DNA from: Candidatus Thorarchaeota archaeon | GTDB taxonomy: Archaea > Asgardarchaeota > Thorarchaeia > Thorarchaeales > Thorarchaeaceae | NCBI GenBank assembly: GCA_048882385.1 | Contig: JBHLRQ010000007.1 | Location: 1-58,172 of the forward strand | Direction: 5' to 3' | DNA: 58,172 nucleotides | In this document: piece by piece, positions 13,159 through 36,869 of the stretch | Layout of the letters: each line of letters begins with the position of its first letter | How positions within the stretch are numbered: the first letter of the stretch is position 1 | The notes under the pieces: generated by a model | Told to the model about the DNA's origin: nothing | The model's input: only the letters and a program-made list of their open reading frames with translations | Databases searched by the model: none | Translations under genes and position numbers: made by a program

Positions 13159-13806
13159 GTGATACTGACGCTTGAGGATTCAATTACTGATGAGTCAGGA
13201 ATCCATCACAGAGAATTGATTATGGTTGGAATTGTTGGTATTGTAGGTCAAATAGTGTGGCACAACTTGTATTGGCTCACAGCCATCCTGTACGGGGATA
13301 TAGCTAGTATGATATGGATTTCAACACCTCTGTTTTATCCTCTTACCATATCATTGGATCTGTTATTTGGTTTGGGTCTGATGGGGGTTTTGTGGAAGTA
13401 CAAGAGCAGATTGGCATTTCCAATACTCATCATACAGATTTCACCATCCCTCCTTCTGTTGCCAATTACTTTTTTCTTTGGACTTCTTGCAAGATTGGTT
13501 TTTCAATATACAATAACACTTGTTGTTGCTTTCCTTTTGTATACAGTTAGAGATCAGGCTGAAATTCAAGGGCTCTTAGTCAGCTCATGTGTCATGATGG
13601 TTCTCAGTTCTTTCATACCTTCAATGATCAATTCAATGCTGTATATGTTGAATCCCTTTTACGCCTACGTAGTCATCTGGGATTTTTACTGGATACTGGT
13701 TCTCCTTTTCTTCCTATCAGAGCTAGGTGTTAATGTCCTGAGGAAAATTGAAGTGATAGATGATTATCCGAGATCACCAACATATGGAAAAGGAGATGAG
13801 TGGTAG
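13159..13806 (+). CDS. Hypothetical multi-pass membrane protein
   Basis: About 6 hydrophobic segments; the last two codons overlap the 3' end of tRNA-Gln on the opposite strand. Confidence 0.7.
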   Translation: MILTLEDSITDESGIHHRELIMVGIVGIVGQIVWHNLYWLTAILYGDIASMIWISTPLFYPLTISLDLLFGLGLMGVLWKYKSRLAFPILIIQISPSLLLLPITFFFGLLARLVFQYTITLVVAFLLYTVRDQAEIQGLLVSSCVMMVLSSFIPSMINSMLYMLNPFYAYVVIWDFYWILVLLFFLSELGVNVLRKIEVIDDYPRSPTYGKGDEW

Positions 13807-13876
13807 TCCCGCCAGGATTTGAACCTAGGTCCGGTGGGCCAGAACCACCGATGCTTGGCCACTACACCACGGGACT
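13801..13876 (-). tRNA. tRNA-Gln (anticodon CTG), CCA encoded, no intron
   Basis: Reverse complement AGTCCCG-TGGTGTAGTGGCCAAGCATC-GGTGG-TT-CTG-GC-CCACC-GGAC-CTAGG-TTCAAAT-CCTGG-CGGGACT-A-CCA folds as a cloverleaf. Confidence 0.97.
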
Positions 13877-33375: not shown

Positions 33376-35076
33376 TCATTCATCATTGTCTTCGCTGGTA
33401 GTGGAATCAAAAAGGCGATCTAACTCAGCTATCGTTTCTCCATTTATTGGTAGATGGTCATCACTCTGGTCTTCATCGCTTTTATTTACGTCACCCAAGC
33501 CTCCTACGGACCTGTCTAGAGGACCAAGAAATTTCTCTAGCTCAAGAAGAGATTCTTCGTCAATTTGATCAGTAGCTTCTGTTTCGTCTTCAATTGGAAT
33601 CGCCTCATCGCTACCAATAGCTTCTAGAGCAGTATCTATCTCCTCATCAGACACTTGCTCAATTTCCGCGACAATAATGTCATCTGCTTCAAGAGCTTCG
33701 AAAATTAGGTCTTTTGCCATTTTAATGGCTTCTGAATTTTCAGAAACGACTAGTGGAGGGCCATCTTCAAAGTATGTAGATTCAGCAGGAATAGCCTCTG
33801 GCTTTTGAACTTCTACAAGAGGTTCTTCTTCGGTCTCAATTTCAACAGAAATTTCCTCTGCTTCATCCACATCAATAGTAGAAACCTCAAGTCCTTCAGC
33901 TTCTTCCACCTCAACAGGCGCTATCTCTGTGGGTTCCTCCTCGATGATCAGTTCTTCTTCTATTTCAGGAATCTCGATTTCTTCTTCTTCCTCTTCTACA
34001 ATCTCTTCGATTTCTTCTTCAACAATCTCGTAATCCTCAATATCCTCAATGATTTGTCCATCCTCATCTACATAGATTTCCTCATACTCTTCTTCTTCAG
34101 CTTCTTCTTCCTCTCGCAACTCTTCAATTGCGTCTACTTCTGCAATAGCTTCTTCTGTTGCAGCGTCTGTGAATTTCAAAAGTTCTGAGGCGGGGAGGTC
34201 TGGAAGAGCAACTCCAACGTATTGTGAAGCAGCTGTCATTAGAATTCTAAGCATTTCATCGCGTCGTTCTTTGTCAATAGCCACCATAGGATAGGTCGGA
34301 ATACCGAGAATCTTCTGTACGACCTCGGGTTTCATGGCTGTCGGTTTATCCTGTTTGTTTGCCATGGCAAAAACAGGCACCTTGGGAGCATCGCGTTTAA
34401 TCAGTTTCAGGATATCTTTGCTAATTATTACATTTCTCAGAGTTGAGTCACAAACAAGGAAAATCACATCAGCACCATGGAAGTAGAATCTCCAAAGTGT
34501 ACGGAAACGCTCCTGTCCTGCGAAGTCCCAGAGAACTAGTGAGTAGTTACCAAAACGAATGTTCTCTACTGTTTCAAGATTGAGAGCAATCGTAGGAACA
34601 TATTGTAGAGGGGGGGTGTCTCCAAGTAACAAATGGAGTGTTGTAGTTTTACCAACACCACCTTCTCCAACAAGAGCAATTTTCAGTCTAGTAGTGACTG
34701 AGGGTTCTATTAATGACGGATAAGTTTCCACTACACCTTCAATTCCATGCTTTTTGAATTTCCATCGGAGAGCCTTTAGAGCTTGGTCAATTTTTTCAAA
34801 GACACTCCCTTCATCCTCTCCCTTGTCAGTTACAAATACTAGAACAGAATCTTCAATCCAGTCTTTTCCGAGGAATTTGTGATCTCCAATTATTAATGGT
34901 AGCTCAGCAACCTCATTATGTTCAGATCTCAAGTCTTCTCTTGTTGAGATGAACTCATTTAGTGCATCTTCAGCTACTTTTACTGGCCAGTACTGAGTCC
35001 GAGCAATTATCTGCCGGGTAGATATTCGTACGAGGAAGGTATTATGGATCAATTCAATATCACCAGATTTGTTCAA
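33376..35076 (-). CDS. Arf/Rab-like small GTPase with an N-terminal longin-like region and a long acidic tail
   Basis: GEGGVGKTT, YVPTI, WDFAGQERFRTLWRFYF, NKQD; about 260 C-terminal residues are very Glu-rich. Confidence 0.88.
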   Translation of the reverse strand: MNKSGDIELIHNTFLVRISTRQIIARTQYWPVKVAEDALNEFISTREDLRSEHNEVAELPLIIGDHKFLGKDWIEDSVLVFVTDKGEDEGSVFEKIDQALKALRWKFKKHGIEGVVETYPSLIEPSVTTRLKIALVGEGGVGKTTTLHLLLGDTPPLQYVPTIALNLETVENIRFGNYSLVLWDFAGQERFRTLWRFYFHGADVIFLVCDSTLRNVIISKDILKLIKRDAPKVPVFAMANKQDKPTAMKPEVVQKILGIPTYPMVAIDKERRDEMLRILMTAASQYVGVALPDLPASELLKFTDAATEEAIAEVDAIEELREEEEAEEEEYEEIYVDEDGQIIEDIEDYEIVEEEIEEIVEEEEEEIEIPEIEEELIIEEEPTEIAPVEVEEAEGLEVSTIDVDEAEEISVEIETEEEPLVEVQKPEAIPAESTYFEDGPPLVVSENSEAIKMAKDLIFEALEADDIIVAEIEQVSDEEIDTALEAIGSDEAIPIEDETEATDQIDEESLLELEKFLGPLDRSVGGLGDVNKSDEDQSDDHLPINGETIAELDRLFDSTTSEDNDE

Positions 35077-35192
35077 GTGTAGATTTCAGTTTCGCAGGCC
35101 GAGTCACTATTGAATTAAGCCTTTAGGAATAGATTAAGTTGTTCCGTGTGTGTATTTTGATGTTCTTTGTACAAAGTATTCTAATGAAATAG

Positions 35193-35385
35193 AAAAATGT
35201 TGGAGCGGGGGCTCGCCAAGGCGAACCTTCCGCATCCGTGGAGCTCTTTCCAACAGGATGCATGGAAAATCAATTACATGCGCAAGACTTGCCCACCTAG
35301 GGCAAATAGGGACCTAGAAACTCACTTTGGGACCGTGTTTGAGTTCCTGACGGGGGAAGCCATGCAAACCTGTCAGTAAGATTTC
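35193..35385 (-). ncRNA. Candidate ~190 nt multi-hairpin non-coding RNA
   Basis: GC-rich island containing at least 5 stems; ends in a T5 tract on the minus strand; TTCATA-like box at 35410-35415. Confidence 0.55.
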
Positions 35386-35579
35386 ACAAGCTCGAACCGC
35401 AAAATACCATATGAAGCTTTCTAGGTTTTTAGTTGAACTATATCTTCTGAAATAATCGCAGAAACATCTAGAGTACGTTGTGGAAATCGCATTAGGTTTA
35501 GGAAACAAACAAACCTTCCGCAACTCTTCTATCACAGTGAACCAAATGAGTTAACCCAAATTGCGAGATGAAATCTGAA

Positions 35580-36719
35580 TTATCTTGGGAAGTTGTCTCG
35601 CAGCAATCGTAAATGGTGATGCACCATTTCCATTTGTTTCGGATCGTCAGGAGTCTTTTCGAGATCTGTTACAAGTGTCTGCAAGAAGTATTCTGGGAAG
35701 AATAATCGTACACGTATGTCGTTCAGTAAGAATAACCACTTGTCATACTCGCCAGAAGCACCTTTTCTTCTCTTCTCGGATATAATTCGGAATTTCTTGA
35801 GAGTTTGAATTGCTTGCTTTAGTTCCTTTGGAGGAATTGCTAGAGTTGCTTCTAATTCAGATATGTTGACAGGTCTTCTCCTCAGTTCACTAAGGGTGTC
35901 ATAACAGTCCGGATCAGCTAGCACTTGAGCAACAGATACAGTGTCTTCAGGCGTCTTTTGCCATTCAGTGAGAAACTCAAGAACCTCAGCTTTGTATTCT
36001 GCAGCCAGTTCAGGATCAAGAACACTACTTGCGGATTCCATCGCCATTAGTGGGGGAGCCCGGAAAACCTCCAGGTCTTTGATCATGAAAACACAAGTCC
36101 GGCCAATCTCGTCAACCCACTCAGTCTTCACAAGTCCGAGTTCTTCGAATGGAGACATGATTGAATCAACACTGACACTCGGTAAACCTGTGACCATTTT
36201 GAGCCATTCTTCGAGTTCTTCCTTAGAGATACCACCTTTCCATAGTTTTGGAAATACAGCACGAGAAACCTCATCTGAGAATAATCTAGCAAGACGAGAT
36301 TCATCTGTCATTCCTGCAAGGCGAATGATTCGACGATAGGTATTATCGAGTTCGGTCTGCAGTTCAGCGTCAGTCATGGCCACGACAGCATTAGTAAGTG
36401 GAGTGACCACAGAGGTAATTGCAGCCTCGTAGGTCTTTGGATCCTCAGAGGTTGTAAGCAGGAGTGATACGCAATACTGTTCCTCTTCTCTTACGATTCC
36501 CGTATAATAGGACGCAACACTATACTCCTCGCCTCCAATTCGTACACTCAATGATGAGAATCCAGCAGTGGCGTCTCCCATGGCGTGTGACGTGAAGATA
36601 CGCATAATTTCTGTATTGAGATCTTCTCTATAATAGTCTGCAAAGTCCCCAGGCACCTTTGCCTTTAAGACAGCTCCTATCTTTGAGTCCCAGTCTATCA
36701 GCAACATCGCTACGGGCAT
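35580..36719 (-). CDS. Longin/uDENN-like domain plus tandem winged-helix protein
   Basis: N-terminal LLIDWDSKIGAVL resembles the F/WDxxxG start of uDENN/NPR2-type longin domains; two wHTH-like segments (ISKEELEEWL...FEELGLV; ISELEATL...LKKFRII). Confidence 0.6.
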   Translation of the reverse strand: MPVAMLLIDWDSKIGAVLKAKVPGDFADYYREDLNTEIMRIFTSHAMGDATAGFSSLSVRIGGEEYSVASYYTGIVREEEQYCVSLLLTTSEDPKTYEAAITSVVTPLTNAVVAMTDAELQTELDNTYRRIIRLAGMTDESRLARLFSDEVSRAVFPKLWKGGISKEELEEWLKMVTGLPSVSVDSIMSPFEELGLVKTEWVDEIGRTCVFMIKDLEVFRAPPLMAMESASSVLDPELAAEYKAEVLEFLTEWQKTPEDTVSVAQVLADPDCYDTLSELRRRPVNISELEATLAIPPKELKQAIQTLKKFRIISEKRRKGASGEYDKWLFLLNDIRVRLFFPEYFLQTLVTDLEKTPDDPKQMEMVHHHLRLLRDNFPR

Positions 36720-36869
36720 TTTACTTCTCTCCCAGTCCCTAAGGGTAGGTCGTGTAAAGCCAGATTATATTACGGTGCAGAGAGCCAGCCTAAAAAACCT
36801 TGTCTTATTTGGATTCGAGAATGAGAAATTTCGACAAATTCAGCGCTTTTTAGATGAGGTTTTCGGCTT

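Follow-up and report, generated by a model that had tools for sequence, protein, structure and literature searches.

The 58,172-nucleotide (nt) stretch of Candidatus Thorarchaeota archaeon DNA analysed here (contig JBHLRQ010000007.1 of assembly GCA_048882385.1, positions 1 to 58,172, hereafter the window) contains a real, uncatalogued and family-specific structured non-coding RNA (ncRNA) gene. The locus is almost certainly a free-standing gene on the minus strand that encodes an RNA of ~195 nt and is restricted to a single Thorarchaeota family. As defined by its match to the covariance model R2 (192.8 bits, model positions 1-202 of 202), the gene occupies 35192-35386 of the minus strand, in close agreement with the span of 35193-35385 given in the original prediction, an earlier reading of the DNA letters that had proposed an unannotated multi-stem RNA at this site. 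It sits in a 503-nt spacer between two minus-strand open reading frames (ORFs) of 379 and 566 amino acids (aa; Table 1).

The element forms a moderate GC island, as had been noted from the sequence, with a GC content of 0.44-0.55 inside 35150-35399 and of 0.30-0.41 on either side (100-nt windows). The 193 nt named originally fold with an energy of -69.1 kcal/mol on either strand, and both folds beat dinucleotide shuffles, the minus strand with a z of -3.40 (1 of 200 shuffles as good) and the plus strand with a z of -2.62 (4 of 200). Conserved G-U pairs are compatible with the minus strand only, for example pair 61-98, which is GU in 22 of the 25 sequences from the genus. The minus strand is the correct one, in line with the original prediction. 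Alignment of close relatives shows a 17-nt insert, gaps of 1-2 and 5-6 nt and a 25-nt 5′ extension. Because these insertions and deletions break any frame, a coding function is excluded and the reading of the element as a short ORF was discarded. The 17-nt insert, AUGUUUCGAAAGAAACA, is a hairpin located directly 3′ of the CCCCGUC in joiner J1/2 in 5 of 17 close-relative sequences, and the 25-nt extension, present in two close relatives, repeats the first bases of the RNA and is capable of forming a hairpin.

The four helices of the fold, P1-P4, are backed by strong covariation. The first covariance model was built from 17 sequences with a hand-set structure, and all 25 genus sequences were then refitted to it. 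RNAalifold applied to the raw MAFFT alignment of the two groups into which the genus sequences fall recovered just 20 pairs, as the groups were misaligned, and the model-guided alignment was used instead. The alignments in which pairs were counted are therefore model-fitted and lean towards the model, but the margins are large all the same. Within the genus, 96.7% of alignment cells are paired, compared with 83.0% in shuffles, 25 of the 42 pairs are changed on both sides, and the score was reached by none of 500 shuffles; slid partners gave at most 51.5% paired cells and at most 9 pairs changed on both sides. Across 12 genera (30 sequences) the corresponding values are 93.0% against 75.1%, 34 of 42 pairs and 0 of 500 shuffles, with slid partners reaching at most 54.1% and 17 pairs. 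The two groups within the genus differ by matching stem changes, GCAUGG/CCAUGC in place of GGCGG/CCGCC, GCGG/CCGC in place of GUUKG/CMAAC and UUGCCC/GGGCAA in place of GCAGU/ACUGC, while the sequence between the stems is invariant over long stretches. In a mutual-information scan of 65 sequences the P1 and P4 pairs ranked at the top, and no additional, tertiary or pseudoknot pair emerged. Three candidate tertiary contacts were dropped: the CCGU of J1/2 with either ACGG, in which changes are uncompensated, and the CGCAA of the P2 loop with UUGCG of J3/1, which likewise shows uncompensated changes and is missing in this genome itself.

In the fold, the three-part helix P1 joins the 5′ end of the RNA to a stretch located ~50 nt before its 3′ end. 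P1 encloses a junction composed of the invariant hairpin P2, the variable hairpin P3 and long, invariant, C-rich single strands, while a separate hairpin, P4, and a short tail stand 3′ of P1. Roughly 60 of the 195 positions are invariant within the genus, many of them in the junction strands and in the never-varying P2 stem. The CCCCGUC of J1/2 is invariant in the 25 genus sequences and kept across genera, and ACGGAUG, in the P4 region, is invariant within the genus; further invariant parts of the core are CUUCCCCCGUC, the P2 stem, CUUGCGCA and ACGGAUGCGG. In other genera P3 is an insertion site, with a length that varies widely between genera, and these genera carry added hairpins with UUCG-type loops in both P3 and P4.

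Table 1. Features of the ncRNA locus, with positions in the window.
Feature	Position	Strand	Description
P1a	35378-81 / 35245-48	-	closing helix; covariation
P1b	35369-76 / 35250-57	-	closing helix; covariation
P1c	35360-66 / 35259-65	-	long-range closing helix; covariation
P1 overall	5′ strand 35360-35381, 3′ strand 35245-35265	-	17 of 17 pairs changed on both sides; 87-91% of cells paired (30 sequences)
J1/2	35348-35359	-	joiner CUUCCCCCGUCA; single-stranded, nearly invariant
P2	35340-47 / 35317-24	-	hairpin GGAACUCA/UGAGUUUC; 98-100% of cells paired; 5 of 7 pairs never vary
P2 loop	inside 35317-35347	-	AACACGGUCCCAAAG; carries GGUCCC at 35329-35334
J2/3	35306-35316	-	joiner UAGGUCCCUAU; holds second GGUCCC at 35309-35314
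P3	35300-05 / 35289-94	-	hairpin UUGCCC/GGGCAA; variable; 4 of 4 pairs changed on both sides
J3/1	35266-35288	-	joiner; invariant CUUGCGCA, then U-tract UUGAUUUU
Linker	35238-44	-	GCUCCAC; between P1 3′ strand and P4
P4	35202-37	-	3′ hairpin GGAUGCGG...CCGCUCC; small internal loop, tetraloop; 11 of 14 pairs changed on both sides (30 sequences)
3′ tail	35193-35201	-	AACAUUUUU, AACA then UUUUU; likely termination site
Promoter-like motif	35408-35424	-	CTAGAAAGCTTCATATG, BRE/TATA-like; ends 22 nt before the first modelled RNA base
Upstream gene	35580..36719	-	379-aa protein; longin-type fold, then two winged-helix domains (AlphaFold2 pLDDT 86.4)
Candidate target	36729..36739	-	5′ untranslated region of upstream gene; GGGACU at 36734-39, then Shine-Dalgarno-like GGGAG at 36729-33
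Downstream gene	33376..35076	-	Arf/Roc-type small GTPase, 566 aa; Pfam Arf 4.6e-21, Roc 2.9e-18

Much of what the original prediction had drawn from the letters reappears in this fold and is kept in relatives: AACTCA/TGAGTT corresponds to helix P2 and TTGCCC/GGGCAA to P3, the GC hairpin at 35205-35233 forms the upper part of P4, and the 7-bp match between distant segments is the long-range closing helix P1c. The GGGACC seen twice on the plus strand is the GGUCCC of the RNA. Three other stems did not survive comparison. The stem TGTTGGA/TCCAACA has 74.6% of its cells paired, a value equalled by 171 of 500 shuffles; CTGAC/GTCAG is 65.9% paired with zero changes on both sides; and the 5′ sides of these two stems belong to helix P1 instead, the TGTTGGA lying in the 3′ strand of P1 and pairing there rather than with the tail. 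For the proposed alternative stem GCATCC/GGATGC, the partner sequence is absent in the 8 relatives of group B. Because these three stems are not conserved, the conformational switch that mutually exclusive stems had suggested has no comparative support. By contrast, the suggestion of a novel, stable ncRNA was borne out by the absence of an Rfam, tRNA, RNase P or SRP identity, by strong compensatory changes in homologues, by a promoter-like motif of its own and by the evidence for the minus strand.

The RNA is found throughout one family, as a single-copy gene. BLASTN searches with 35150-35450 against 60 other genomes matched 23 of the 27 from the same genus and none of the 33 from outside it. 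Model R2 extended this to 73 of 87 genomes of the order, namely its own genome and 72 of the 85 others of the same family, and did not match the one genome from the sister family. These matches span 12 of 17 genera, and each genome has a single full-length match. When the phylum was sampled evenly, R2 matched 21 of 26 genomes of the family and none of 124 genomes from 26 other families. Two relatives from the genus carry the RNA on two contigs each, for which strain mixture in the bins is likelier than a true second copy. Unfiltered searches beside the ortholog of the 379-aa protein in genera that had given no match yielded scores of 23.3, 19.8, 8.5, 7.1 and 10.2 bits, and the key motifs are retained; one locus in this set stops inside the ortholog and cannot be judged. 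In the single genome of the sister family, the 65%-identical ortholog is followed only by an AT-rich spacer of ~120 nt, with no match to the RNA. Among loci from Atabeyarchaeia, Odinarchaeia and other Asgard lineages, where the orthologs are 31-32% identical, no model match exceeded 8.3 bits, and in the three of these loci that were checked, another ORF starts within ~60 nt of the ortholog.

The RNA matches no catalogued class. Rfam 15 gave no family at its gathering score anywhere in the window. At E ≤ 10, the region 35000-35620 returned only ceN70 (15.5 bits, cut-off 65), outside the element, and 20 diverse homologues returned only a chance match to chrB-a (18.7 bits vs 43.9). The ceN70 match, C/D-box-like and at 35563-35602 of the plus strand (E 2.3), overlaps the stop of the 379-aa gene and is probably due to chance. 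ARAGORN placed no tRNA at the element, the single tRNA of the window lying far off at 13801-13876. These scans agree with the earlier failure to recognise a tRNA, signal recognition particle (SRP) RNA, RNase P RNA or known riboswitch in the sequence. A search of the literature retrieved no description of this Thorarchaeota RNA, and in one preprint (bioRxiv 10.64898/2026.10.21.760802) the passages matched by the search terms contain neither 'Asgard' nor 'Thorarchae'.

Specific classes were considered and rejected. The genome has its own RNase P RNA (RF00373) at C4:50377-50718 (164.2 bits) and its own archaeal SRP RNA (RF01857) at C9:50812-51122 (95.1 bits, cut-off 96.5, E 5e-22). As a tRNA, including one bearing introns, the element fails in that P4 is one continuous covarying hairpin without a T-loop and the ends pair as P1 and not as an acceptor stem; no motif-free intron census was made for this comparison. 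As a C/D box small RNA (sRNA), its 195 nt lack UGAUGA, and the sole CUGA lies near the 5′ end. As an H/ACA sRNA, the internal loop of P4 measures only 2 by 1 to 3 nt, with no G-A tandem and no pseudouridylation pocket. An ACA does stand 3′ of P4 in this genome and is not kept in all genera.

That the RNA belongs to a known class from which it has diverged strongly, for instance as a tRNA gene interrupted several times, as a guide RNA of the H/ACA or C/D type or as another RNase P- or SRP-like RNA, we regard as extremely unlikely. The end of the RNA in ...CCAACA after a hairpin would suit the first of these, as would the finding that ARAGORN recovered only 22 tRNAs, given that Asgard tRNA genes are described as often heavily interrupted (bioRxiv 10.64898/2026.10.13.758758). 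However, the RNase P and SRP RNAs are accounted for elsewhere in the genome, the RNA and 20 homologues gave no Rfam match at E ≤ 10 bar the one chance hit, ARAGORN found nothing at the element, and the continuous, covarying P4 without a T-loop, the lack of an RUGAUGA box and the missing pseudouridylation pocket argue against each of the classes. The genome is rated 95% complete, and its low count of 22 tRNA genes by ARAGORN fits the intron-bearing Asgard tRNA genes reported in that source, which notes that such genes are often missed by standard tools (bioRxiv 10.64898/2026.10.13.758758).

The minus-strand TATA-like box and TTTTT end of the original prediction are both present. The motif CTAGAAAGCTTCATATG has counterparts upstream of the RNA in most of 28 loci inspected, from several genera, and a strict form of it, GAAAG[CG]TTC[AT]TATG, occurs once in the 3.7-Mb genome. 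It resembles a promoter-like motif, GACAAGGTTTTTTAG, of the upstream gene (36790-36804), and we infer from these letters that CTAGAAAGCTTCATATG comprises a B recognition element (BRE) and a TATA box, which would make it the promoter of the RNA. Another promoter-like block, also conserved, stands before the GTPase gene. The RNA of several genera appears to begin earlier than the model, with extra 5′ hairpins, and the 3′ T-run is not strictly conserved in every relative, so that the 3′ end given here is an approximate one, placed from sequence. A scan for sigma-70 promoters and hairpin terminators, a type of scan not applicable to archaea, found nothing at the RNA ends. Four RNA libraries, from four studies, contain contigs of relatives (85-95% alike) that cover parts of 34981-35491. 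Among these, a 129-nt piece (35239-35367) is flanked by adapter sequence; the other pieces cross the proposed 5′ or 3′ end of the RNA. Because the contigs carry neither strand nor ends and DNA may have been present in the libraries, we take them as evidence neither for nor against a sharply bounded transcript.

The gene order bears on whether the element acts in cis. In 23 of 24 loci, the same-strand neighbour immediately upstream is the gene for the 379-aa protein. Directly downstream of the RNA there is a large same-strand ORF in 16 of the 24, an opposite-strand ORF in 7 (with a large same-strand ORF further on in 5 of these) and a 1.1-kb gap in 1. Two of the opposite-strand ORFs were scanned; one matched a GNAT acetyltransferase and the other gave weak TPR matches only. 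Because an opposite-strand ORF follows the RNA in 7 of the 24 loci and a gap in 1 more, a role as leader of the GTPase gene is not supported, and the riboswitch or 5′ leader class was set aside on the finding that a same-strand ORF directly follows in only 16. The attenuator upstream of the GTPase gene that had been proposed originally is likewise not supported, the steady neighbour being the upstream gene.

In its wider form, the cis explanation holds that the element is either the 5′ leader or attenuator of the GTPase gene or a structured 3′ untranslated region (UTR) of the upstream gene. The placement of the RNA and both neighbours on one strand is compatible with this, as are the RNA-library contigs that run from the RNA into the flanking DNA on either side and the lack of strict conservation of the 3′ T-run. 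However, the bridging contigs may come from DNA in the libraries, the RNA is preceded, at a suitable distance, by the conserved BRE/TATA-like motif, the GTPase gene has a promoter-like block of its own, and the alternative stems that a switch would use are not conserved. Together with the downstream arrangements described above, these observations make a cis element very unlikely.

The function that we favour for the RNA, with a probability of roughly 0.35, is action in trans by base pairing of GGUCCC with translation start regions, a proposal made from sequence. The exposed GGUCCC motifs in the P2 loop and J2/3 would pair with G-rich sequence at translation start regions, and the first candidate target would be GGGAC(C/U) located directly 5′ of the Shine-Dalgarno (SD) sequence of the upstream longin/winged-helix gene. 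Pairing at this target would alter ribosome access or mRNA stability. At least one GGUCCC is present in all 65 RNAs, with one copy in 20, two in 34, three in 8 and four in 3, compared with 0.07 in shuffles. The 32 nt before the start codon of the upstream gene contain GGGACC in 34 of 64 family loci and GGGACT in 20, with neither in 10; in 54 of the 64, the motif lies 0-2 nt before the SD (GGAG or GGGAG). Among 3650 crude start regions of its own genome, this target takes rank 31 with the P2-loop segment and rank 16 with the J2/3 segment; with J1/2 and J3/1 its ranks are 158 and 2643, respectively. Neither the RNA nor the GGGAC(C/U) motif is present in the one genome from the sister family or at 6 distant orthologs from beyond Thorarchaeota. 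In one genome with AGGGAA in the UTR, the loops are changed to GGUUCC and AAUUCCC.

Several observations weigh against this pairing. There are no compensatory changes between loop and UTR, and the loops stay GGUCCC in 9 of the 10 loci with a degenerate UTR motif. In genus g36, 2 of 3 genomes keep GGUCCC, and the UTR of one of these two is without GGGACC. Duplex energies of the whole RNA with the UTR are no better than with shuffled UTRs (mean z -0.48, 21 genomes). No clear regulon was found among the 3650 start regions: GGGACC occurs in 21 of them against a permutation mean of 8.5, under a start-picking rule that favours GGGA, and GGGACT is not enriched (rank 44 of 120). As GGGACC and GGTCCC are the same site in double-stranded DNA, a DNA-binding factor could explain the match. 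A single 6-nt target also leaves CUUCCCCCGUC, the P2 stem, CUUGCGCA and ACGGAUGCGG unexplained, and these look more like a protein-bound or tertiary core. Beyond this target, perfect complements of the conserved single strands are not above expectation in the genome, and the two longest occur only at the locus itself.

Elsewhere in the genome, GGGAC(C/U) lies within 30 nt before the crude start codons of two further small-GTPase-like ORFs, at C6:12899 (+) and C106:8035 (-), an anecdotal observation that rests on rough gene calls. AGCUCC opens the 5′ UTR of the 379-aa gene (36720-36810, minus strand) in many genera; it is complementary to the gene's own GGAG ~25 nt downstream, and GGGACC lies between the two. 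From sequence complementarity, the AGCUCC/GGAG pairing could close the leader on itself, in a form that an RNA partner would either open or lock.

An alternative is a protein-binding RNA. According to this view, which we hold as tentative and on balance doubtful, the invariant strands and GGUCCC repeats bind one or more proteins and the RNA works within a ribonucleoprotein, as a scaffold or sponge; candidate partners include the longin/winged-helix protein encoded next door and, at the U-tract, a protein of the Sm-like type. The wealth of invariant positions in the junction strands and P2 stem, the variation of GGUCCC from 1 to 4 copies, the retention of the U-tract before the P1 3′ strand and the linkage of the RNA gene to the very conserved 379-aa gene in nearly all loci are all consistent with such a role. 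However, the partner protein is hypothetical, distant Asgard orthologs of the neighbour and the 65%-identical ortholog of the sister family lack such an RNA beside them, and the fold of the 379-aa protein resembles subunits of GTPase regulators and not known RNA binders.

The same junction might instead be the compact tertiary core of a ribozyme or ligand-sensing RNA, catalytic or small-molecule-binding. Conservation is concentrated in the junction joiners, while the helices covary freely and carry insertions, a distribution that is typical of ribozymes and aptamers. However, tertiary and pseudoknot pairs were absent from the mutual-information scan, changes in the candidate CCGU/ACGG contacts are uncompensated, the models of known ribozymes and riboswitches gave no match at E ≤ 10, and there is no consistently controlled downstream gene, which leaves this explanation quite unlikely. 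A broader proposal, itself unlikely, sees the RNA as an innovation of Thorarchaeota, either as the core of a ribonucleoprotein specific to this lineage or as a new class of ribozyme or sensor; the junction (CUUCCCCCGUC, P2, CUUGCGCA, ACGGAUGCGG) would then be the active or ligand-binding site and the GGUCCC loops docking points, with the UTR match secondary or coincidental.

The 379-aa protein belongs to no Pfam family. Its identity is 84-94% between genera in which the RNA has changed almost past recognition. It gave weak Foldseek matches to chains of the GATOR1, SEA and FLCN-FNIP complexes, and one or two paralogues with 23-32% identity are present in each of 7 genomes searched. The GTPase has an N-terminal extension of ~125 residues and a very acidic C-terminal half, and the two proteins look like a GTPase-plus-regulator pair.

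By way of working, and by analogy, the nearest systems to the proposed pairing RNA appear to be the RsaE/RoxS-type sRNAs with C-rich loops and the CsrB-type sponges with repeated motifs, likenesses in mode of action and not claims of homology. Like RsaE/RoxS and the UCCC loops of RNAIII in Firmicutes, the Thorarchaeota RNA displays unpaired C-rich motifs in a stable fold that are complementary to a G-rich ribosome-binding region, and like RsaE/RoxS it appears to be a single-copy, separately transcribed gene. There is no similarity in sequence or model, however, and the Thorarchaeota RNA is archaeal, about twice as long, built around a closed multi-helix junction and far richer in invariant positions, with a target that is only predicted. 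The CsrB/RsmZ protein-sponge sRNAs share with it a short, exposed, repeated motif, which is present in many copies in CsrB and in 1-4 copies here, the number varying by lineage; the large invariant junction is not a feature of sponges. In archaea, sRNA162 of Methanosarcina mazei is comparable as an intergenic sRNA with its own promoter and a proposed pairing with a translation start region, but it comes from another lineage and has no similarity to the Thorarchaeota RNA, in which family-wide conservation and rich covariation are unusual for such sRNAs. With the orphan ncRNAs OLE, raiA and HEARO, the RNA has in common a complex conserved fold, an invariant junction and lineage restriction; none of those Rfam models match it, and it is archaeal and much smaller than OLE.

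To our knowledge, almost nothing is known of ncRNAs in Asgard archaea beyond rRNA, tRNA, RNase P RNA and SRP RNA. The present analysis provides a family-wide, single-copy RNA with a well-supported fold and a testable target, and adds the finding that the proposed target pairing lacks covariation. The RNA sits between two eukaryote-like genes, one for a longin/winged-helix protein that resembles GTPase regulators and the other for an Arf-like GTPase. If the RNA does control the longin gene, it would give a first case in Asgard archaea of such a module being regulated by an RNA; if it is instead a ribonucleoprotein core or a ribozyme, it would represent an RNA class not described before. In both cases, the alignment and model are ready for an RNA family database and would improve the annotation of Thorarchaeota genomes.

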